Shown: piece by piece, positions 1-12,771 of the stretch
Numbering within the stretch: position 1 is the stretch's first letter
How the letters are laid out: each line of letters opens with the position of its first letter
Origin: a virus
Taxonomy: Duplodnaviria > Heunggongvirae > Uroviricota > Caudoviricetes
Virus record (IMG/VR): IMGVR_UViG_2563366976_000005
Direction: 5' to 3' (one strand)
Length of the DNA: 13,080 bases
Notes under the pieces: model-generated
Told to the model about the DNA's origin: nothing
What the model saw: the letters and a program-made list of their open reading frames with translations, nothing else
The model's database searches: none
Translations under genes and position numbers: made by a program

Positions 1-1284
1 TTACTTCTTCGCCTCTGCAACCACTTTACTACCCACGCCGCGGTTATTGTATTCCCACATGCGGTTGTAGTTAGTGTCATTCAGATTGCGCTGTATTTCG
101 TCGTTATCATCTACGCTGCCGGTATTACCCGCAAACGGACGATTAGAGATCACCGCATCGGCCCACGGTTTAGCCGTGTTAAAACCTTCGTTGATGGCGC
201 TATCACGGATCACCACCTGACCGTTGGTATTGGCATCAACATCCAGCGAGCGGCCCAGTTGCGCCACACCATCACCGAAAGCATTGAAACGGCTGTTTAC
301 GGCGAGGAAACCGTAGTAAATGTTGGACAGCGTAGCCGGTGCAAACACATACGCTTCTTGCTGAGTACGTGAGTTCACCACGCGGAATTCGGTGTTATCG
401 AACACCACTGCGCCGCGACCAGAAACGATATCCACATCCCCTTCAATGTAGCTGTTGGTCACCAGCGTACGCGGCTGACGATTCGTTTCCAGACGGTTCT
501 GCACACCGCTGTTGGTGACAAAGAAGGTGTTCTGACGACCGAGAATGTTAACGTTGTTAATCTGTACCTGGTCACCATCAGTACGCAGTGCCACCGCCGG
601 ATGGTTACCTGCATCTACGCTATCGCCCAGCGTGTTTTCGATGGTCAGATTTTGCAGTTGCAGGCCATTGTTTTGTGACCAGAAGACCGCAGAGCAGAGA
701 ACACCGATACTGTCGCTGCGTTTGCTCTGGCAGCTATCGTACATATACCACGCTGGTTTACCTGGCATATATTTGCCGCGCGGGTTGACGTCGTGACGCC
801 AGTCGGCAGGGCTCATGCCACCATCAAGGGAAAGCCCAATCTTCACATCAATCGGTTTTTCACCTGTACCGTACAGAGTAATTCCACCCGGAGCGGCAGG
901 GACATATACCGTTCCCTGATACTCACCAGGCATCACGGCAATATACTGGCGCTTGTTGGTACGCTTGATAATTGCCGCATCTACCGCCGCCTGAATCGTG
1001 GTATGCGTTACACCTTGAGTGCCCGCCGGGCCGACAACAAAGTCAGGTTGCGCAGGCAGGGTAATCGGGGAAGGATTCCACGCTGCAGCACCTGGTGTCA
1101 GGGATGCAAAATAGTGTTGAGCATCGAAATTCTGCGCTTCTTTTGCCGACAGAATCGGGCGAGAAGAGGTACCAGGCGCGGTTTGATCAGAAGGACGTTG
1201 ATCGGGCGGGGTTGAGCTACAGGCGGTCAGCGTCACGCCAAAAGCCAATGCCAGCGCCAGACGGGAAACTGAAAATGTGTTCAC
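1..1284 (-). CDS. ybhC: YbhC, pectinesterase-family outer-membrane lipoprotein (acyl-CoA thioesterase), host chromosomal gene flanking attB-lambda
   Basis: Complete 427-aa ORF with its stop at 1..3. It has a signal peptide with lipobox LTAC. Pectinesterase-like blocks are present in variant form (GRQNTFF, GDVDIVSG, QLGRS). It lies directly next to the lambda att core, as ybhC does in E. coli. Confidence 0.9.
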   Translation of the reverse strand: MNTFSVSRLALALAFGVTLTACSSTPPDQRPSDQTAPGTSSRPILSAKEAQNFDAQHYFASLTPGAAAWNPSPITLPAQPDFVVGPAGTQGVTHTTIQAAVDAAIIKRTNKRQYIAVMPGEYQGTVYVPAAPGGITLYGTGEKPIDVKIGLSLDGGMSPADWRHDVNPRGKYMPGKPAWYMYDSCQSKRSDSIGVLCSAVFWSQNNGLQLQNLTIENTLGDSVDAGNHPAVALRTDGDQVQINNVNILGRQNTFFVTNSGVQNRLETNRQPRTLVTNSYIEGDVDIVSGRGAVVFDNTEFRVVNSRTQQEAYVFAPATLSNIYYGFLAVNSRFNAFGDGVAQLGRSLDVDANTNGQVVIRDSAINEGFNTAKPWADAVISNRPFAGNTGSVDDNDEIQRNLNDTNYNRMWEYNNRGVGSKVVAEAKK

Positions 1285-1320: not shown

Positions 1321-1420
1321 GTTGAAGCCTGCTTTTTATACTAAGTTGGCATTATAAAAAAGCATTGCTTATCAATTTGTTGCAACGAACAGGTCACTAT
1401 CAGTCAAAATAAAATCATTA
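1321..1420. other. attL: attL (B-O-P'): core 1331..1344, IHF H' site 1370..1382, Int arm-type sites P'1 to P'3 at 1391..1420
   Basis: The core reads gctttttatactaa. It is preceded by the host B arm (gttgaagcct) and followed by gttggcattataaaaaagcattgcttatcaatttgttgcaacgaacaggtcactatcagtcaaaataaaatcatta, recalled as the lambda P' arm. tatcaatttgttg fits the IHF consensus WATCAANNNNTTR. aggtcactat, cagtcaaaat and aaaatcatta are arm-type Int sites. Confidence 0.9.
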
Positions 1421-2488
1421 TTTGATTTCAATTTTGTCCCACTCCCTGCCTCTGTCATCACGATACTGTGATGCCATGGTGTCCGACTTATGCCCGAGAA
1501 GATGTTGAGCAAACTTATCGCTTATCTGCTTCTCATAGAGTCTTGCAGACAAACTGCGCAACTCGTGAAAGGTAGGCGGATCCCCTTCGAAGGAAAGACC
1601 TGATGCTTTTCGTGCGCGCATAAAATACCTTGATACTGTGCCGGATGAAAGCGGTTCGCGACGAGTAGATGCAATTATGGTTTCTCCGCCAAGAATCTCT
1701 TTGCATTTATCAAGTGTTTCCTTCATTGATATTCCGAGAGCATCAACATGCAATGCTGTTGGGATGGCAATTTTTACGCCTGTTTTGCTTTGCTCGACAT
1801 AAAGATATCCATCTACGATATCAGACCACTTCATTTCGCATAAATCACCAACTCGTTGCCCGGTAACAACAGCCAGTTCCATTGCAAGTCTGAGCCAACA
1901 TGGTGATGATTCTGCTGCTTGATAAATTTTCAGGTATTCGTCAGCCGTAAGTCTTGATCTCCTTACCTCTGATTTTGCTGCGCGAGTGGCAGCGACAGGG
2001 TTTGTTGTTATATGGCCTTCAGCTATTGCCTCTCGGAATGCATCGCTCAGTGTTGATCTGATTAACTTGGCTGACGCCGCCTTGCCCTCGTCTATGTATC
2101 CATTGAGCATTGCCGCAATTTCTTTTGTGGTGATGTCTTCAAGTGGAGCATCAGGCAGACCCCTCCTTATTGCTTTAATTTTGCTCATGTAATTTATGAG
2201 TGTCTTCTGCTTGATTCCTCTGCTGGCCAGGATTTTTTCGTAGCGATCAAGCCATGAATGTAACGTAACGGAATTATCACTGTTGATTCTCGCTGTCAGA
2301 GGCTTGTGTTTGTGTCCTGAAAATAACTCAATGTTGGCCTGTATAGCTTCAGTGATTGCGATTCGCCTGTCTCGGCCTAATCCAAACTCTTTACCCGTCC
2401 TTGGGTCCCTGTAGCAGTAATATCCATTGTTTCTTATATAAAGGTTAGGGGGTAAATCCCGGCGCTCATGACTTCGCCTTCTTCCCAT
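1418..2488 (-). CDS. int: Lambda-type tyrosine integrase Int
   Basis: The 356-aa ORF is essentially lambda Int by recall (MGRRRSHERRDLPPNLYIRNNGYYCY...). The catalytic set is intact: R in GQRVGDL, H..R in HELRSL, H in LLGHKS, Y in ASQY. It overlaps xis as in lambda. Confidence 0.97.
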   Translation of the reverse strand: MGRRRSHERRDLPPNLYIRNNGYYCYRDPRTGKEFGLGRDRRIAITEAIQANIELFSGHKHKPLTARINSDNSVTLHSWLDRYEKILASRGIKQKTLINYMSKIKAIRRGLPDAPLEDITTKEIAAMLNGYIDEGKAASAKLIRSTLSDAFREAIAEGHITTNPVAATRAAKSEVRRSRLTADEYLKIYQAAESSPCWLRLAMELAVVTGQRVGDLCEMKWSDIVDGYLYVEQSKTGVKIAIPTALHVDALGISMKETLDKCKEILGGETIIASTRREPLSSGTVSRYFMRARKASGLSFEGDPPTFHELRSLSARLYEKQISDKFAQHLLGHKSDTMASQYRDDRGREWDKIEIK

Positions 2489-2684
2489 TTCTGATCCTCT
2501 TCAAAAGGCTACCTGTTACTGGTCGATTTAAGTCAACCTTTACCGCTGATTCGTGGAACAGATATTCTCTTCCATCCTTAACCGGAGGAGGGAATATCCT
2601 GCATTCGCGCACCCATCGACGAACTGTTTCAAGGCTTCTTGGGCGTCGCTGGCGAGCGTTCCACTCCTGAAGTGTCAAGTACAT
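2466..2684 (-). CDS. xis: Excisionase Xis
   Basis: The 72-aa ORF MYLTLQEWNARQRRPRSLETVRRWVRECRIFPPPVKDGREYLFHESAVKVDLNRP... matches lambda Xis by recall. Its 23-nt overlap with the int start is as in lambda. Confidence 0.95.
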   Translation of the reverse strand: MYLTLQEWNARQRRPRSLETVRRWVRECRIFPPPVKDGREYLFHESAVKVDLNRPVTGSLLKRIRNGKKAKS

Positions 2685-3608: not shown

Positions 3609-4184
3609 TCACCCATCTTGCTGCGGTGCTACTATTGAAAAGTACTCACACCCTTTAGCCCAAATAGTTTTGATAGTTGTCCAACTGACTGGAACCTTGA
3701 TTTCGATTCTTCCGCTGCCGTCACAAGTTTCGCAATCATCATCACCAAAGCATTCCGGGCAGCTTATAAACGTAGTTTCTGAAAATTCACCGGATAGCAC
3801 ACCCTTAGCGCCGTTCTCAGCGGTTAGTTTCTTCGGCACTATAACCCAACCATCCGGAGTTACCGGAGAATTGCCATTTATATCGAAGTTTGGCTCTGCG
3901 TCCTGAACCAGGAGGATGTAACCATTCTTGGCAGTATCAAGTTCTAACGCCTCGGTGACGGTACCGAAATAGCGATTACCTAAATCCGCATCACAAGTGC
4001 TTACATCAATGGAAACCTCCATGCCTTCGATTAATTCTGGCAAGTTGTAAGTTTGGCTTACAGGTTCTGCTCCCAGTGATGCCAGTGCAATTCGTGCCAG
4101 TTCCATTTGTTCGCCACGAGTAAGCCCGTTTTCAAGCGGATTTTTAATGAACAATTCAATACGTTCTTTGGTAATAGTGGTCAT
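3609..4184 (-). CDS. Hypothetical protein with a C-terminal DnaJ-type CxxC..CxxCxGxG zinc-ribbon motif
   Basis: 191-aa ORF with SD aaggactaacaaATG. The motif is CPECFGDDDCETCDGSGRI. The N-terminal part (LTRGEQMELARIALASLGAEPV) resembles N-termini of the variable Ead/Ea22-region proteins of lambdoid phages. Confidence 0.6.
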   Translation of the reverse strand: MTTITKERIELFIKNPLENGLTRGEQMELARIALASLGAEPVSQTYNLPELIEGMEVSIDVSTCDADLGNRYFGTVTEALELDTAKNGYILLVQDAEPNFDINGNSPVTPDGWVIVPKKLTAENGAKGVLSGEFSETTFISCPECFGDDDCETCDGSGRIEIKVPVSWTTIKTIWAKGCEYFSIVAPQQDG

Positions 4185-4194
4185 TTGTTAGTCC

Positions 4195-4950
4195 TTAAAC
4201 TGCTAGTTGCAATTGCATTTCAAAGCGGTCGCGTTGTTCACAATACGCAAGAGAACCAGGGCTATTGTGTGCCTCAATCCGTTCTACCATTAATGCTGCG
4301 CGTGTCTCTTTACTTGCAGGTGCATAAGCCCCAGACCAGGCTTTATCAATACCGATGTTTCGAGCGACGTTCGTACTATCTGCGCTGGCTAAGGGTAATT
4401 TTGTGAATATCAGCGGATTTAACATGCGCAATCCATGTAGTTTCGTAACCGGCTGACCATGCCCATCAACAATGTGACGAATCAGGTCTTTCATTCTGGC
4501 TACCGCAAGAGTTGGGCGCTTTACGTCATAGTCGCCACAACTACCGATAGCCACTCGCGGAAACTCATTGCACAAATGAATAAATCGCTCGTCACTTTCA
4601 TTCATGTGCCACACTGGAACGCCAGCTAGTTTTCCGTGAGGCCACTCATTCAGAAGCGCATCATTTTCCTCCTCTCCGCCATCAATAACATCCGGGATAA
4701 TGGCAAAATCGAATCCTGGGTGATTCTTCCAGCGAGCAACAAACTCGTAGTAATCGCTCCAGTCGATTTTGTTTTTGCCAGCTGCTTTCCAGGCGGTGAA
4801 TGCACCGTTGTCCAGCGCGAACGACTGACAGTATTCAGCCGCGAGATTGATCTGGCCTGAATGCGCAAAACTGATAAACGCATGTCGCCCTTTCCATGCT
4901 CTCATTGCGCACGTATCAGGAGTAATAGGCCCACCGTGGTAGTGAATCAT
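4195..4950 (-). CDS. TGT-superfamily protein, DpdA-like (putative guanine/7-deazaguanine transglycosylase)
   Basis: 251 aa from MIHYHGGP. The SD is aaaggagagtgagATG, and this start lies 1 nt after the upstream gene's stop, so I prefer it to the 4992 start. Motifs are colinear with E. coli Tgt: FALDNGAF/TDSGGFQ, IIPDVI/MIFDEC, VAIGSCG/YAVGGLA, LHGLRM/LMGVGK, ADSTNVARN/FDCVMPTRNARN. The assignment is not confirmed by a search. Confidence 0.55.
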   Translation of the reverse strand: MIHYHGGPITPDTCAMRAWKGRHAFISFAHSGQINLAAEYCQSFALDNGAFTAWKAAGKNKIDWSDYYEFVARWKNHPGFDFAIIPDVIDGGEEENDALLNEWPHGKLAGVPVWHMNESDERFIHLCNEFPRVAIGSCGDYDVKRPTLAVARMKDLIRHIVDGHGQPVTKLHGLRMLNPLIFTKLPLASADSTNVARNIGIDKAWSGAYAPASKETRAALMVERIEAHNSPGSLAYCEQRDRFEMQLQLAV

Positions 4951-4951
4951 C

Positions 4952-5359
4952 TCACTCTCCTTTGATGCGAATGCCAGTAGCGCGGATTGCATCGATGACT
5001 TCAGAAACTTTGTATGCCATTACCGTTTGGTAATCATCGTGAAAATCTGTTCGATGAAGCATGCTGCTACGTTCCGGGAGCAGTATTTCCCGCGCTTCCA
5101 GTTCTGCAATGCGCTTTTTTGCTGCTTCCAGTTCATCCAGTAATTCCAGCACGGTAGCCGGATTAGCCTTGGCAACAAAATCCCGGACTGGCTTACAATC
5201 AATCTCCGCAATGGGTTGATACGATGTGTAGCCATGCTGTCTTGTATAACTACCGTGACGAATAACGAAAAAATCACCATTTATTTTTTTAGCCTGCCAC
5301 TTATCTTCACCGGCTTTCTCTGCCGCTTCACGCAGTGCCTGAGAGTTAATTTCGCTCAC
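4952..5359 (-). CDS. Ead/Ea22-like family protein (lambda Ea22 N-terminus, divergent body)
   Basis: 135 aa with a GTG start in a GTGA overlap with the upstream stop. The first residues, MSEINSQALREAAE, and the last, GIRIKGE, match lambda Ea22 by recall. The coiled-coil segment LELLDELEAAKKRIAELE is typical of the family. Confidence 0.7.
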   Translation of the reverse strand: MSEINSQALREAAEKAGEDKWQAKKINGDFFVIRHGSYTRQHGYTSYQPIAEIDCKPVRDFVAKANPATVLELLDELEAAKKRIAELEAREILLPERSSMLHRTDFHDDYQTVMAYKVSEVIDAIRATGIRIKGE

Positions 5360-5577
5360 GTCGAACCTCTCTGTTTACTGATAAGCTCCAGATCTTGCTG
5401 GCAACTGGCACAAGTCCGACAACCCTGAACGGCCAGTCGTCTTCGTTCATCTATCGGATCGCCACACTCACAACAATGAGTGGCAGATATAGCCTGGTGG
5501 TTCAGGCGGCGCATTTTTATTGCTGTGTTGCGCTGTAATTCTTCAATTTCTGATGCTGAATCAATTATGTCTGCCAT
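5356..5577 (-). CDS. DksA/TraR-family C4 zinc-finger protein (lambda orf73-like)
   Basis: 73 aa with CCECGDPIDERRRLAVQGCRTCASCQ, which is CxxC-x17-CxxC. The position matches lambda orf73. Confidence 0.85.
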   Translation of the reverse strand: MADIIDSASEIEELQRNTAIKMRRLNHQAISATHCCECGDPIDERRRLAVQGCRTCASCQQDLELISKQRGST

Positions 5578-6159: not shown

Positions 6160-6314
6160 ACAGCTCCCCGTTTATTATTTATCTCCTCAGCCAGCCGCTG
6201 TGCTTTCAGGGGATTTCTGATAACAGAAAGGCCGGGAAATACCCAGCCTCGCTTTGTAATGGAGTAGACGAAAGTGATCGCGCCCACCCGGATATTATCG
6301 TGAGGATGCGTCAT
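6132..6314 (-). CDS. Lambda orf60a-like protein
   Basis: [61 protein letters not shown] chose the start at the ATGA overlap with the exo stop (6311..6314). Confidence 0.75.
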
Positions 6315-6991
6315 CGCCATTGCTCCCCAAATACAAAACCAATTTCAGCCAGTGCCTCGTCCATTTTTTCGATGAACTCCGGCACCATCTCGTCAAAACT
6401 CGCCATGTACTTTTCATCCCGCTCAACCACGACATAATGCAGGCCTTCACGCTTCATACGCGGGTCATAGTTGGCAAAGTACCAGGCATCTTTTCGCGTC
6501 ACCCACATGCTGTACTGCACCTGGGCCATGTAAGCCGACTTTATGGCCTCGAAACCACCGAGCCGGAACTTCATGAAATCCCGGGAGGTAAACGGGCATT
6601 TCAGCTCAAGGCCATTGCCGTCACTGCATAAACCATCGGGAGAGCAGGCGGTACGCATACTTTCGTCGCGATAGATGATCGGGGATTCAGTAACATTCAC
6701 GCCGGAAGTGAATTCAAACAGAGTTCTGGCGTCGTTCTCGTACTGTTTTCCCCATGCCAGCGCCTTAGCATTAACTTCCGGAGCCACACCGGTGCAAACC
6801 TCAGCCAGCAGGGTGTGGAAGTAGGACATTTTCATGTCAGGCCACTTTTTTCCGGAGCGGGGTTTTGCTATCACATTGTGAACTTCTGAAGCGGTGATGA
6901 CGCCGAGCCGTAATTTGTGCCACGCATCATCCCCCTGTTCGACAGCTCTCACGTCGATTCCGGTACGCTGCAGGATAATGTCCGGTGTCAT
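6311..6991 (-). CDS. exo: Lambda exonuclease (Red alpha)
   Basis: The 226-aa [68 protein letters not shown]... is lambda Exo by recall. Confidence 0.97.
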
Positions 6992-7773
6992 GCAGCCACC
7001 TTCTGCTCAGTGGCTTTCTGTTTCAGGAATCCAAGAGCTTTCACTGCTTCGGCCTGTGTCAGTTCTGACGATGCGCGAATGTCGCGGCGAAATATCTGGG
7101 AACAGAGCGGCAATAAGTCGTCATCCCATGTTTTATCCAGGGCAATCAGCAGAGTGTTAATCTCCTGCATGGTTTCATCGTTAACCGGAGTGATGTCGCG
7201 TTCCGGCTGACGTTCTGCAGTGTATGCGGTATTTTCGACAATGCGCTCGGCTTCATCCTTGTCATAGATACCCGCAAATCCGAAGGCCAGACGGGCACAC
7301 TGAATCATGGCTTTATGCCGTAACATCCGTTTGGGATGCGACTGCCACGGCCCCGTAATTTCTCTGCCTTCGCGGGTTTTGAATGGTTCGCGGCGGCATT
7401 CATCCATCCACTCGGTAACGCAGATCGGATGATTACGGTCCTTGCGGTAAATCCGGCATGTACAGGATTCATTGTCCTGCTCAAAGTCCATGCCATCAAA
7501 CTGCTGGTTTTCATTGATGATGCGGGACCAGCCATCAACGCCCACCACCGGAACGATGCCATTCTGCTTATCAGGAAAGGTGTAAATTTCTTTCGTCCAC
7601 GGATTAAGGCCGTACTGGTTGGCAACGATCAGTAATGCGATGAACTGCGCATCGCTGGCATCACCTTTAAATGCCGTCTGGCGAAGAGTGGTGATCAGTT
7701 CCTGTGGGTCGACAGAATCCATGCCGACACGTTCAGCCAGCTTCCCAGCCAGCGTTGCGAGTGCTGTACTCAT
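6988..7773 (-). CDS. bet: Lambda Bet single-strand annealing protein (Red beta)
   Basis: The 261-aa [67 protein letters not shown]... is lambda Bet by recall. A 4-nt overlap links it to exo. Confidence 0.97.
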
Positions 7774-7778
7774 CCGTT

Positions 7779-8075
7779 TTATACCTCTGAATCAATATCA
7801 ACCTGGTGGTGAGCAATGGTTTCAACCATGTACCGGATGTGTTCTGCCATGCGCTCCTGAAACTCAACATCGTCATCAAACGCACGGGTAATGGCTTTTT
7901 TGCTGGCCCCGTGGCGTTGCAAATGATCGATGCATAGCGATTCAAACAGGTGCTGGGGCAGGCCTTTTTCCATGTCGTCTGCCAGTTCTGCCTCTTTCTC
8001 TTCACGGGCGATCTGCTGGTAGTGACGCGCCCAGCTCTGAGCCTCAAGACGATCCTGAATGTAATAAGCGTTCAT
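7779..8075 (-). CDS. gam: Gam RecBCD inhibitor (98-aa GamS form)
   Basis: [56 protein letters not shown]... is lambda Gam by recall. Confidence 0.95.
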
Positions 8076-9447: not shown

Positions 9448-10137
9448 TTAACCATGCTTCCTGTACGTCTGCGGCATGCTTCCAATGACCTTACCGAATA
9501 TGAACACCCGGTTCATCTCGTCTTTCTCGATCGGGTCCCACGGCGAGTAGCTCTTGTTATCAGAGATAACCAGCAGCTTATCCTTCATCATTTGAAGACG
9601 TTTTACATGGGCAGTGTCGTCGTACAGAAACGCATAGATGCCATCACCGTCGAAAGATTTAACAGTGATATCAACGAACAGCAGGTCACCTGGTTCGATC
9701 GTCCCTGACATGCTGTCACCTCGCACGTTAATGATGCGGATATTTTCCGCCTTCCTGCCATCGAACATGTGACGAGCATCGTCAAACGAGTACTCAACCG
9801 AGCGTAGAACTTCTACAAACTCACGGTTGATTACACCTGGCCCGGCACTGACTTCTATATCAAGAACGTCAATTTTGAAGTATTTGGAATGGCTGACAGT
9901 TGATTGTATTGGTTGCACTGTACTGTCTGACATATTTCCAACGCCAGAAGATAACCATTCTGCGCGCACACCCAAAGCGTTCGCGATCTCCACGATTTTA
10001 GTTGTTTGGTTAGCTTTCCCTGTTTCGATTTTCTGAATAGCAGCCTGGCTAACCCCGACCAAATCCCCAAGCGCCTTTTGTGTAAGGCCTCGCGCTAATC
10101 TGGCTTCTTTAAGTCTTTCTGAGAGTGTTGTTTTCAT
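9448..10137 (-). CDS. cI: CI-type prophage repressor (N-terminal XRE HTH, C-terminal S24 LexA-like autopeptidase)
   Basis: 229 aa. The HTH is LTQKALGDLVGVSQAAIQKIETG. The candidate Ala-Gly cleavage site is in VSAGPG. The Ser is in GDSMSGT and the Lys in HVKRL. The gene is divergent from cro. No SD precedes its ATG. Confidence 0.9.
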   Translation of the reverse strand: MKTTLSERLKEARLARGLTQKALGDLVGVSQAAIQKIETGKANQTTKIVEIANALGVRAEWLSSGVGNMSDSTVQPIQSTVSHSKYFKIDVLDIEVSAGPGVINREFVEVLRSVEYSFDDARHMFDGRKAENIRIINVRGDSMSGTIEPGDLLFVDITVKSFDGDGIYAFLYDDTAHVKRLQMMKDKLLVISDNKSYSPWDPIEKDEMNRVFIFGKVIGSMPQTYRKHG

Positions 10138-10241
10138 AGATCAAATGTACAACCAAGGTTTTATTTCATCAAACGAAAATGGTTGTTGACTAAAAACAAC
10201 CATAGTTTTAATCTTGATTCGGATTAACCACGGAGGTTGTT
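10138..10241. promoter_or_regulatory. oR / pR / pRM divergent control region
   Basis: A perfect 9-bp inverted repeat, atggttgtt-N7-aacaaccat (10179..10203), overlaps pR -35 TTGACT (10186..10191). The pR -10 is taatct (10209..10214). Candidate pRM on the minus strand is TTGATG (10172..10167), 17 nt, then TACATT (10149..10144), which places the transcription start at or next to the cI ATG. Extra half-sites are ACAACC at 10149 and GGTTGT at 10235. Confidence 0.6.
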
Positions 10242-10472
10242 ATGAACCCAGCAATCAAAACAGCGATCAATATCGTTGGTTCACAAAAGAAACTAGGCGA
10301 TGCCTGCGAAGTTTCACAGCAGGCCGTCTATAAGTGGCTTCACAACAAAGCAAAGGTATCCCCTGAACATGTCGGCAGCATTGTTACGGCTACTGGTGGA
10401 GTTGTGAAGGCATACCAGATTCGCCCGGATCTTCCGAAGTTGTTTCCACACACCGAAAAGAACGCAGCTTAA
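10242..10472 (+). CDS. cro: Cro-like repressor, YdaS family HTH
   Basis: 76 aa with SD cggaggttgttATG. The pattern IVGSQKKLGDACEVSQQAVYKWL...TGGVV....IRPDL parallels Rac YdaS by recall. Confidence 0.8.
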   Translation: MNPAIKTAINIVGSQKKLGDACEVSQQAVYKWLHNKAKVSPEHVGSIVTATGGVVKAYQIRPDLPKLFPHTEKNAA

Positions 10473-10484
10473 ATTTCCATTTCA

Positions 10485-10497
10485 CGCTCTTTAACAA
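10485..10497 (+). promoter_or_regulatory. boxA element (nutR position)
   Basis: cgctctttaacaa matches the rrn boxA TGCTCTTTAACAA at 12 of 13 positions. It lies between cro and the CII analogue, where lambdoid nutR sites lie. Confidence 0.65.
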
Positions 10498-10541
10498 TAA
10501 GCAATCAACTTAACAGTCAATTCAAACTAAAGGAGTCAATT

Positions 10542-11081
10542 ATGCAACCACTTACATACCAACAGACTAGCGGATTTATTCCGACTGCGGTGATAAATCG
10601 TTCTCAAACAAAACAAGCTCCAGGCCACGAAAAAATCCGTGATGCCGTCCGCGCCTGGTCGGCTGTAGATAATCAGGATGTCGTTGCCGCACTCATTGTG
10701 AATGAGTATCGGGAGCAGGGCGACGGCACCATCGATTTCCCTGATGATGTCAGCCGTGCACGCCAGAAGCTGTTCCGCTTCCTCGATAACAAATTCGATT
10801 CTGAAAAATACCGAAATAACGTGCGTGAACTGACCCCGGCAATTCTGGCGGTACTACCGCTGGAATATCGCGGTTACCTGGTTGAGCAGGATAGCTTCAT
10901 GACTCGGTTGGCTGAAATGGAAAAGGAACTCAGTGAGGCAAAACAGGCTGTCATTCTCAACGCACCACGCCACCAGAAACTGAAGGAAATGAGTGAAGGT
11001 ATTGTGTCGATGTTTCGTGTGGACCCGGATCTGGCTGGTCCATTAATGGCGATGGTGACCACCATGCTGGGGGCAATATGA
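10542..11081 (+). CDS. YdaT-like protein (functional analogue of CII)
   Basis: 179 aa with SD aaaggagtcaattATG. VAALIVNEYREQG.. and LTPAILAVLPLEYRGYL parallel Rac YdaT (ANAITEEYLRQGG, LIPAILAILPRELRHRL) by recall. It sits in the cII position. Confidence 0.7.
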   Translation: MQPLTYQQTSGFIPTAVINRSQTKQAPGHEKIRDAVRAWSAVDNQDVVAALIVNEYREQGDGTIDFPDDVSRARQKLFRFLDNKFDSEKYRNNVRELTPAILAVLPLEYRGYLVEQDSFMTRLAEMEKELSEAKQAVILNAPRHQKLKEMSEGIVSMFRVDPDLAGPLMAMVTTMLGAI

Positions 11082-11167
11082 CAGGTTCAGAAATGGCGAA
11101 AGTCGGTCTGCGGGAACAGAACCGACTTTCAGGTGCAAATCGTAACACACTCATTGCGGGAGGAATT

Positions 11168-12097
11168 ATGGCAAACACTGCTGAGATATTCAATTTTCCA
11201 GTGCCGGATGCGGCACAAAAGGAGCCGCGCGTGGCAGATCTCGATGATGGTTATACGCGCATTGCAAATGAGTTGCTGGAAGCTGTGATGCTGGCCGGAT
11301 TAACACAGCACCAGCTTCTGGTCTTCCTGGCTGTCATGCGCAAAACATATGGCTTTAATAAAAAACTGGATTGGGTGAGCAACGAGCAACTTTCCGAGTT
11401 GACCGGGATATTGCCGCACAAGTGTTCTGCTGCAAAAAGCGTTCTGGTAAAGCGTGGGATTCTTATTCAGAGCGGGCGGAATATCGGCATTAATAATGTG
11501 GTCAGTGAATGGTCAACATTACCCGAATCAGGTAAGAAAAATAAAGTTTACCTGAAAGAGGTAAATTTACCTGAATCAGGTAAGAAAAGTTTACCCAAAT
11601 CAGGTAAAGGCGTTTACCCGAATCAGGTAAACACAAAAGACAAACTAACAAAAGACAATATAAAACCTTTTTCGTCCGAGAATTCTGGCGAATCCTCTGA
11701 CCAACCAGAAAACGATCTTCCTGTGGAGAAACCAGATGCTGCAATTCAGAGCGGCAGCAGGTGGGGGACAGCAGAAGACCTGACCGCCGCAGAGTGGATG
11801 TTTGACATGGTGAAGACCATCGCGCCATCAGCCAGAAAACCGAATTTTGCAGGGTGGGCTAACGATATCCGCCTGATGCGTGAACGTGACGGACGTAACC
11901 ACCGCGACATGTGCGTGCTGTTCCGCTGGGCATGCCAGGACAACTTCTGGTCCGGTAACGTGCTAAGTCCGGCCAAACTCCGCGACAAGTGGACCCAACT
12001 CGAAATCAACCGTAACAAGCAACAGGCTGGCGTGACAGCCGGAAAATCAAAACTCGACCTGACAAACACTGACTGGATTTATGGGGTGGATTTATGA
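11168..12097 (+). CDS. O: Replication initiator O (chimeric: novel N-terminal iteron-binding half, lambda-type C-terminal half)
   Basis: I chose the start MANTAEIFNF (SD gggaggaattATG) because it aligns with lambda O MTNTAKILNF. An in-frame alternative ATG at 11078 forms an ATGA overlap with the upstream stop. From about SSENSGESSDQPENDL to the end the protein equals lambda O by recall. Confidence 0.85.
   Translation: MANTAEIFNFPVPDAAQKEPRVADLDDGYTRIANELLEAVMLAGLTQHQLLVFLAVMRKTYGFNKKLDWVSNEQLSELTGILPHKCSAAKSVLVKRGILIQSGRNIGINNVVSEWSTLPESGKKNKVYLKEVNLPESGKKSLPKSGKGVYPNQVNTKDKLTKDNIKPFSSENSGESSDQPENDLPVEKPDAAIQSGSRWGTAEDLTAAEWMFDMVKTIAPSARKPNFAGWANDIRLMRERDGRNHRDMCVLFRWACQDNFWSGNVLSPAKLRDKWTQLEINRNKQQAGVTAGKSKLDLTNTDWIYGVDL
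11519..11630. repeat. ori: Replication origin iterons (five copies) inside O
   Basis: TTACCyGAAwsAGGTAA occurs at 11519..11535, 11548..11564, 11567..11583, 11591..11607 and 11614..11630. Each copy is internally palindromic (TTACC-N7-GGTAA). An A-rich tract follows at 11631..11670. The layout matches lambda ori, but the iteron sequence is different. Confidence 0.85.
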
Positions 12098-12771
12098 AAA
12101 ACATCGCCGCACAGATGGTTAACTTTGACCGTGAGCAGATGCGCCGGATCGCCAACAACATGCCGGAACAGTACGACGAAAAGCCGCAGGTACAGCAGGT
12201 AGCGCGGATCATCAACGGTGTGTTCAGCCAGTTACTGGCAACTTTCCCGGCGAGCCTGGCTAACCGGGACCAGAACGAACTGAACGAAATCCGCCGCCAG
12301 TGGGTTCTGGCTTTCCGGGAAAACGGGATCACCACAATGGAACAGGTTAACGCAGGAATGCGCGTAGCCCGTCGGCAGAATCGACCATTCCTGCCATCAC
12401 CCGGGCAGTTTGTCGCCTGGTGCCGGGAAGAAGCATCCGTTACCGCCGGACTGCCAAACGCCAGCGAGCTGGTTGATATGGTTTACGAGTATTGCCGGAA
12501 GCGTGGCCTGTATCCGGACGCAGAGTCTTATCCATGGAAATCAAACGCGCACTACTGGTTGGTTACCAACCTGTACCAGAACATGCGGGCCAATGCGCTG
12601 ACTGACGCGGAATTACGGCGTAAAGCTGCCGATGAGCTGACCTGTATGACCGCGCGAATTAACCGTGGTGAGGCGATACCTGAACCAGTAAAACAACTTC
12701 CTGTCATGGGCGGTAGGCCTCTAAATCGTGCACAGGCTCTGGCGAAGATCGCAGAAATCAAAGCGAAGTGA
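12094..12771 (+). CDS. P: Replication protein P (DnaB loader), C-terminally truncated by IS insertion
   Basis: 225 aa, lambda P by recall up to ...AKIAEIKAK. Lambda P continues FGLKGASV. Here the TGA stop (12769..12771) is the first three bases of the IS inverted repeat. Confidence 0.9.
   Translation: MKNIAAQMVNFDREQMRRIANNMPEQYDEKPQVQQVARIINGVFSQLLATFPASLANRDQNELNEIRRQWVLAFRENGITTMEQVNAGMRVARRQNRPFLPSPGQFVAWCREEASVTAGLPNASELVDMVYEYCRKRGLYPDAESYPWKSNAHYWLVTNLYQNMRANALTDAELRRKAADELTCMTARINRGEAIPEPVKQLPVMGGRPLNRAQALAKIAEIKAK

Follow-up and report, generated by a model that had tools for sequence, protein, structure and literature searches.

The gene at positions 4195..4950 of the IMG/VR virus record IMGVR_UViG_2563366976_000005, a 13,080-nucleotide stretch of Caudoviricetes DNA here called the window, encodes a protein of 251 amino acids (aa) that, judged from its sequence, belongs to the phage DpdA branch of the tRNA-guanine transglycosylase (TGT) superfamily and is both constrained and catalytically intact. 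This placement follows from its family matches, the conservation of its predicted catalytic residues and a ratio of non-synonymous to synonymous substitution (dN/dS) of 0.02. We consider it probable that the gene is a functional stand-alone phage dpdA, the product of which would insert a host-supplied 7-deazaguanine into phage DNA; within this proposal we infer the substrate base, a DNA rather than a tRNA target, the extent of modification and its protective effect. The window covers the left arm of a lambdoid Escherichia coli prophage together with its immunity region, and the dpdA found in it is another allele of a catalogued clade; a 2019 publication already described the family, its stand-alone status and its occurrence in temperate phages of the lambdoid and P22-like types. 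The discovery value is small; the gene is instead a convenient experimental model for what singleton DpdA enzymes insert, where and why. This dpdA allele is present in about 4% of complete E. coli genomes, and the BTP1 orthologue belongs to a Salmonella phage recovered from the culture supernatant of strain D23580.

Family identity of the 251-aa protein

The 251-aa protein matched PHROG 887, named queuine tRNA-ribosyltransferase, with an E value of 2.3e-103, and its 7855 database homologues showed a similarity far above chance. A family profile was made from 56 diverse members, down to 33% identity. Significant similarity to validated phage DpdA was found with three kinds of comparison: hhalign of this profile with the experimentally validated DpdA of the Pseudomonas phage Iggy (98.8% probability, E 6e-17), BLASTP with DpdA (gp38) of Pantoea phage MED16 (38% identity, E 8e-44), and tblastn, in which Iggy DpdA was 26% identical (E 1e-5). 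The tblastn search of phage genomes also found Stx1a phage EH2115 (99% identity), BTP1 and SPN3UB (93%), SfI and Vibrio phage Athena1 (both 68%), MED16 (38%) and Salmonella phage 7-11 (36%), with further matches in phages Vid5 and EC151. In comparison with the BTP1 orthologue the synonymous sites were saturated and dN/dS was 0.02; the protein is under strong purifying selection.

The initial annotation had described a compact DpdA-like enzyme of the TGT superfamily, lacking the zinc subdomain and lying in the ea region of a lambdoid prophage without preQ0 genes, and this description is supported. The five Tgt-type motif blocks occur in order, at residues 44, 84, 133, 171 and 187, and the Tgt strings quoted for comparison do occur in E. 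coli Tgt, where they follow one another in the same order (residues 88, 140, 210, 243 and 260). The protein had been estimated to be about 120 aa shorter than Tgt, and with 375 aa in E. coli Tgt the difference is 124 aa. As stated there, the zinc subdomain is absent: the TGT zinc site CxCxxC...H was not found, there is no CxCxxC in the protein, and its Cys residues (14, 41, 127, 138 and 237) are not conserved among family members. Iggy DpdA also lacks CxCxxC, and the zinc site is incomplete in 9g DpdA (PMC5699537).

A 93% identical counterpart of the product of this enterobacterial dpdA-like gene is encoded by GenBank entry OR850331.1 (hit H45; 1719 bp), which carries the label 'Staphylococcus phage SA 1298 Kay' and is probably mislabelled or a contaminant.

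Fold and predicted catalytic residues

The AlphaFold2 (AF2) model of the 251-aa protein is a beta/alpha (TIM) barrel. We counted it as the (beta/alpha)8 barrel of the TGT superfamily, a modelled assignment for which the Foldseek search of the PDB was itself non-specific. A search of the viral models in BFVD gave 23 matches at E<=1e-3, of which 16 were unnamed and all of the 7 named ones were phage queuine/queuosine tRNA-ribosyltransferases.

The profile-profile match with bacterial DpdA is weak (29%, E 5.8e-4), though collinear over 164 columns, and the numbering of the S. Montevideo enzyme was transferred through the alignment with PDB 7UI4. D47, F51, D87, G136-S137 and D191 fall on D95, F99, D130, G206-G207 and D256 of bacterial DpdA, which serve as general acid/base, stacking Phe, base-recognition Asp, Gly-Gly motif and nucleophile, respectively (PMC10164549). 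D47, S189, D191 and S192 are invariant across the 56 family members, and with D47 and D191 both the predicted general acid/base Asp and the predicted nucleophile Asp are conserved. The role of Asp87 in base recognition is tentative, because the alignment with Iggy DpdA matches the neighbouring D90 and not D87.

Modification in related phages and proposed mechanism

The DpdA proteins of MED16 and 7-11 belong to the same singleton cluster and conserve all motif blocks, and neither phage has que genes; MED16 DpdA was placed in this cluster by its own paper (PMC8306585). In MED16, dpdA is the only deazaguanine-pathway gene, and the DNA contains dADG, reported at about 0.13% of Gs (PMC8306585). The DNA of 7-11 contains 50 dADG per 10^6 nucleotides (nt) (PMC6884629), corresponding to 0.02% of G. 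Both are virulent phages, unlike the window prophage. The DpdA1 proteins of Iggy, CAjan and 9g have a homologous catalytic core, but they are only about 26% identical to the 251-aa protein and about 60 aa longer; their genes stand beside folE/queD/queE/queC, and about 16-32% of G is modified in these phages. In Iggy, about 16.5% of dG is replaced by dPreQ0 (PMC10484667). When 9g DpdA alone was expressed in E. coli, 790 dPreQ0 per 10^6 nt were detected in plasmid DNA (PMC6884629). Because 9g DpdA alone modifies plasmid DNA, a phage DpdA can use the base pool of E. coli, and by analogy a host-fed mechanism appears feasible for the window gene.

In the mechanism that we propose, transcripts of the leftward early operon would include dpdA when the phage grows lytically or is induced, and the enzyme would act on double-stranded phage DNA after replication. 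Asp191 would attack C1' of the target deoxyguanosine and guanine would be displaced, with Asp47 as the general acid, giving a covalent enzyme-DNA intermediate; a covalent Asp intermediate has been proposed for bacterial DpdA (PMC10164549). The intermediate would then be resolved by a free base from the FolE-QueD-QueE-QueC pathway of the host, either preQ0 or possibly its precursor ADG, and a small fraction of G would become dPreQ0 or dADG at preferred sequence motifs. Such sparse, motif-restricted modification is expected by analogy, because the closest analysed singletons, MED16 and 7-11, carry only 0.02-0.13% and MED16 DNA gains little restriction resistance.

Several results weigh against a functional, protective, host-fed DpdA. 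The two singleton phages analysed carry very little modification (0.02-0.13% of G), most of the restriction enzymes tried still cut MED16 DNA (PMC8306585), and no modification was found in the singleton mycobacteriophage Orion (PMC6884629). Literature searches returned no biochemical work on members of the lambdoid clade. In bacteria, the Dpd restriction-modification system has a DpdA (PDB 7UI4) that requires the ATPase DpdB and ATP, and DpdB is absent from the window; this bacterial enzyme is also longer than 400 aa, has a large zinc-containing insertion and matches NF041059, which gave no NCBIfam match to the 251-aa protein. The hhalign probability with the bacterial DpdA profile was only 29%, and hhalign with single E. 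coli Tgt found nothing. No residue aligned with His181 of bacterial DpdA, with a nearly invariant H115 adjacent, and the confidence of the AF2 model was only moderate, with a predicted local distance difference test (pLDDT) score of 71.5. The searches of PDB sequences by phmmer and hmmsearch gave only noise for the 251-aa protein, the family profile and Iggy DpdA, and no Pfam, NCBIfam or PADLOC model matched the 251-aa protein. PF01702, the profile proposed for a check in the initial annotation, matched neither this protein nor any of the 56 family members. The Pfam and PADLOC results, that for PF01702 included, are uninformative, because the validated Iggy DpdA has no match either.

Singleton dpdA genes in temperate phages

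Hutinet et al. listed 76 phages in which dpdA is the only pathway gene (Supplementary Data 1; PMC6884629). Among them are HK106 and SfI (YP_009147480) of Enterobacteria, the Salmonella phages BTP1, SPN3UB, SEN1, SE131 and 7-11, Pectobacterium phage PEAT2 and Vibrio phage Athena1. The authors described a 'singleton DpdA' cluster of gamma-proteobacterial phages, for which dependence on host preQ0 was suggested (PMC6884629). Our matches in SfI (gp34) and BTP1 (gp23), both labelled queuine tRNA-ribosyltransferase in RefSeq, land exactly on the listed genes, and both lie in the ea region. The singletons of BTP1, SPN3UB, SfI, HK106 and Athena1 agree with the 251-aa protein in family, length and stand-alone status, and their genes share its place behind an Ea22-like gene in the ea region of temperate phages, lambdoid or P22-like; they differ from the window gene by allele and downstream gene only. 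The view that such a gene would be unusual in a lambda-type temperate phage is incorrect, because lambdoid and P22-like members (HK106, SfI, BTP1, SPN3UB) were already listed in 2019. Our literature searches found no experiment on any temperate (lambdoid or P22-like) singleton DpdA.

Neighbourhoods of the family and alternative functions

The neighbourhood set comprised 71 loci with a relative of the enzyme, out of 185,579 species genomes. No neighbour was conserved across these loci. The que genes were adjacent in 4 of the 71, and no linkage to preQ0 genes was found in the window itself; the published singleton subgroup is defined by the lack of such linkage (PMC6884629). Two of the four loci are from acidobacterial metagenome-assembled genomes (MAGs), in which a family member (237 aa, full-length, 50-56% identical, hhalign 100%) heads the same series of genes, namely queC, queE, queD, folE2, a weak DUF328/DpdC-like gene, dpdB and bacterial dpdA. 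In the Terracidiphilus cluster dpdB (NF041060, E 1.7e-129) and dpdA (NF041059, E 3.7e-172) stand beside the family member. In Paraburkholderia sp. HD33-4, a ParB-like gene, a DpdA1-type gene, a queC-like gene, folE, queD and queE follow the family member within 1.3 kb, and the DpdA1-type gene is 32% identical to Iggy DpdA (E 2e-20), so that two DpdA types occur together. In the fourth locus, from another MAG, a queE-like gene is directly upstream. In seven loci the dpdA-like gene has a DNA methyltransferase gene (MT-A70, C5-cytosine, N6/N4) as its immediate neighbour, as Pfam confirmed; three more (L007, L014 and L044) were assigned only by sequence clustering or near-identical N-termini, which suggests about ten loci in all. 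The que/dpd clusters and the methyltransferase neighbours tie the family to 7-deazaguanine chemistry and DNA modification. The link with que and dpd clusters, newly seen here, makes the functional assignment stronger, and it opens the possibility that bacterial Dpd systems contain a second transglycosylase that is non-redundant.

The acidobacterial clusters hold two different transglycosylases in one Dpd modification cluster, in two lineages. In one further locus (L077) a PAPS-reductase-like gene follows the dpdA-like gene, and the methyltransferase and PAPS-reductase neighbours suggest small DNA-modification islands.

A possible reading, to which we give a limited chance, is that the singleton family is more than a reduced preQ0 insertase and has a specificity of its own, for example direct insertion of ADG, the QueC intermediate, or a distinct target motif, and acts as a low-stoichiometry anti-defence or marking device. 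If so, direct ADG insertion would explain the dADG of MED16 and 7-11 without DpdC, and the pairing with canonical DpdA, DpdB and a weak DpdC-like (DUF328) protein in Acidobacteria, or with the DpdA1 type in Paraburkholderia, would represent a non-redundant second transglycosylase.

The same two observations, dADG in singleton phages in place of the expected dPreQ0 and co-occurrence with canonical DpdA in Acidobacteria and Paraburkholderia, which suggests a non-redundant role, could also be taken to mean that the fold and the catalytic Asp serve another reaction: base removal by a glycosylase, exchange for another base, transfer to a non-DNA acceptor as with Cap10, or a sink for host preQ0. We regard this as rather unlikely. 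Cap10 of type IV CBASS (PDB 9NTN) is only 8% identical to the 251-aa protein, the sequence similarity of which is to phage DpdA, and Cap10 acts with Cap9 and a CD-NTase to deazaguanylate a protein; no Cap9 (QueC-like) or CD-NTase gene was found in the window, nor any PADLOC match. Moreover, MED16 and 7-11 encode only such a transglycosylase, yet they have deazaguanine in their DNA.

Modification of host or phage tRNA by a true tRNA-guanine transglycosylase, which would tune translation during infection, is improbable. It is favoured by the name of PHROG 887 and of the RefSeq phage records, and was historically proposed for the TGT-like genes of Dp-1 and Rosebush (PMC5699537). However, bacterial Tgt is longer by 124 aa and has the zinc subdomain that the 251-aa protein lacks, and no significant profile similarity to it was detectable, whereas the similarity to validated DNA-modifying DpdA is strong. 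The host already has Tgt, the deazaguanine of MED16 and 7-11 is in their DNA, and family members stand beside DNA methyltransferases and Dpd DNA-modification clusters.

The downstream 191-aa gene

The initial annotation placed a 191-aa open reading frame (ORF) with a DnaJ-type CPEC..CETCDGSG zinc ribbon 10 nt downstream of the 251-aa ORF. Both ORFs, their spacing and the zinc ribbon were confirmed, and the four Cys of the ribbon (C142, C145, C151 and C154) are invariant in 30 homologues (alignment A3). The only Pfam hit of the 191-aa protein was Anti-TRAP, which is not significant (E 0.68), and its AF2 model was unusable (pLDDT 38). The name 'molecular chaperone DnaJ', given by the Prokaryotic Genome Annotation Pipeline (PGAP), fits only the single CxxCxGxG-type motif of the sequence.

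The gene is a mosaic. Nucleotide matches to Stx1a phage EH2115 and to Salmonella phages S107/S135 end about 40 codons into it. EaA of BTP1 opens with a similar MTTITKE start, and the leader through ARIALASLE opens the DUF550 protein of E. coli 50579417. Residues 38-191 form a near-invariant module; in many prophages that lack dpdA it occurs as a fusion with N-termini of Ead/Ea22, DUF550 and DUF551, and parts of the gene were found in 678 genomes, mostly with other N-termini fused and without dpdA.

It had been suggested that the zinc-ribbon protein may be a partner of the enzyme, and as a required component it might supply the zinc or DNA-binding subdomain. The two genes are on the same strand and 10 nt apart, and an enzyme without the TGT zinc subdomain stands next to a protein with a zinc ribbon. 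Nevertheless, no homologue of the 191-aa protein was found in any of the 70 other family loci, where the downstream gene differs almost every time. The dpdA allele is intact in 201 of 5426 E. coli genomes and the whole window arrangement is present in only 29 of them; in at least 101 of the E. coli genomes, and in BTP1, dpdA is followed by DUF550 (PF04447, dATP/dGTP pyrophosphohydrolase), often fused to DUF551. Iggy DpdA is likewise without CxCxxC, and 9g DpdA acts alone in E. coli. A two-gene module is thus very improbable; the partner hypothesis is refuted and the 191-aa protein is an unrelated mosaic ea-region gene without a role as conserved partner. It is also very improbable that dpdA is an inactive relic which a highly mosaic accessory region carries along. 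The ea region can be dispensed with and recombines readily, and insertion sequence (IS) elements interrupt neighbouring genes in some genomes, but dN/dS is 0.02, the catalytic residues are invariant down to 33% identity and the gene is intact in 201 E. coli genomes.

The DUF550 proteins encoded after dpdA in BTP1 and in three E. coli prophages (Table 1) share the N-terminal leader of the 191-aa protein. A purine-dNTP hydrolase beside a guanine-exchanging enzyme is suggestive, yet DUF550 is common where dpdA is missing, and among the more diverged loci the two genes are neighbours in BTP1 only; as a conserved 'real' partner of dpdA it was rejected for these reasons. Parts of a query spanning the DUF550 gene and dpdA matched 2796 genomes, whereas dpdA itself is in only 204, and most of the DUF550-type matches are therefore without dpdA.

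Organization of the window

The features of the window and the loci of relatives are collected in Table 1. Prophages of 29 complete E. coli genomes match the 2 kb around the two genes with 100% identity; E. coli FORC 064 (NZ_CP022664) is one strain that carries this prophage. The ORF at the left end resembles ybhC, the chromosomal gene beside the lambda attachment site. As the initial annotation stated, there are no preQ0-pathway genes: homologues of folE, queD, queE or queC were detected in the window neither by Pfam and PHROG scans nor by tblastn. Its placement of dpdA in the pL early-left operon next to the Red genes holds for the operon, in which dpdA lies between exo and xis/int; 'next to' is loose, since exo is about 1.4 kb and five small ORFs away.

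Table 1. Features of the window and loci of relatives discussed in the text (L numbers are our locus identifiers, with positions within the locus; H numbers are database hits)
Feature	Position	Strand	Remarks
427-aa ORF	1..1284		Resembles ybhC
Lambda-type Int	1418..2488		Family match
Xis	2466..2684		Family match
Several small ea-region ORFs			
Mosaic EaA-type accessory protein, 191 aa (zinc-ribbon gene)	3609..4184	minus	PHROG 60; no significant Pfam match
Zinc-ribbon motif CPEC-x5-CETCDGSG (C142..G158)	3711..3761	minus	Read from sequence
Leader, aa 1-37, MTTITKERIELF...ARIALASL	4074..4184	minus	Common to EaA-type proteins
dpdA, 251 aa, singleton phage-type DpdA homologue (DNA guanine / 7-deazaguanine transglycosylase)	4195..4950	minus
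Asp191 codon (SADSTN), predicted nucleophile	4378..4380	minus	Aligns with SCDSS of Iggy DpdA and D256 (SIDST)
Asp87 codon (IPDVI), predicted base-recognition Asp, tentative	4690..4692	minus	Nearly invariant; aligns with D130
Asp47 codon (LDNGAF), predicted general acid/base	4810..4812	minus	Invariant in 56 members; aligns with LDSGAF of Iggy DpdA, D95
Ead/Ea22-like gene	4952..5359	minus	PF13935, E 2.6e-17; directly upstream of dpdA
DksA/TraR-like zinc finger	5356..5577		Family match
DUF1382 and DUF1317 genes			Between the DksA/TraR-like gene and exo
exo, bet, gam	6311..8075 (exo 6311..6991)		Family matches
Kil-like ORF			After exo/bet/gam
Lipoprotein gene, 126 aa	8838..9218	minus	Signal peptide and Cys; PHROG 3135; weak BamE-like match
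S24 repressor	9448..10137		Family match
YdaS-like Cro, YdaT/CII-like protein, O, P			After the repressor
Terracidiphilus MAG, Dpd cluster	L053:5748-12783		Same gene order as L057
Bryobacteraceae MAG, Dpd cluster	L057:423-7460		Same gene order as L053
Paraburkholderia sp. HD33-4 cluster	L051:9947-15477
Methyltransferase-flanked loci	L018, L021, L025, L029, L041, L055, L072, about 10000-12500		Pfam-confirmed; prophages and integrative elements
DUF550 gene after dpdA	L001:4767-5732; L085:1693-2313; L086:1693-2397; L087:1831-2490		L001 is eaA of BTP1
IS2/IS3-family elements	H26, H33; L085:3662-5196; L086:145-1373		In or beside the ea region of E. coli prophages

The 251-aa ORF starts with MIHYHGGP. 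A longer reading from the ATG at 4992 was rejected, because every homologue begins at MIHYHGG. The stop codon of the Ea22-like gene is 1 nt from the start of dpdA, and the ribosome-binding site of dpdA lies inside the 3' end of the Ea22-like gene (junction AAAGGAGAGTGAGATG); the Ea22-like gene is followed by dpdA also in BTP1 and three sampled E. coli prophages. The spacer between dpdA and the 191-aa gene (exactly 10 nt, 4185..4194) holds a TAAGGA ribosome-binding site. A promoter/terminator scan found no dedicated dpdA promoter, and the strand, the tight spacing and the apparent translational coupling to the Ea22-like gene point to expression from the early leftward operon.

Reading through upstream of the dpdA start (window 4948-4992, minus strand) gives the peptide MQSALLAFASKESEM, which also precedes MSTITKERIELF... 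genes in prophages without dpdA (P0140, P0145). The exact point at which the dpdA cassette was inserted therefore seems to be a gene boundary, with the ribosome-binding site at the 3' end of the Ea22-like gene on one side and the EaA-type leader on the other. IS2/IS3-family elements are found in or beside the ea region of several E. coli prophages (Table 1), and in the O121:H19 strain FWSEC0006 the DksA/TraR-like gene, which lies just upstream of the Ea22-like/dpdA pair, is split by an IS element.

The window also shows lambdoid mosaicism, as the lambda-type Int/Xis (1418-2684) is combined with a YdaS-like Cro, a YdaT/CII-like protein and an S24 repressor (9448-11081). The lipoprotein gene directly downstream of the repressor gene, in the position of rexAB in lambda and in a stretch of low GC content (43%), is a candidate for a moron expressed in the lysogen.

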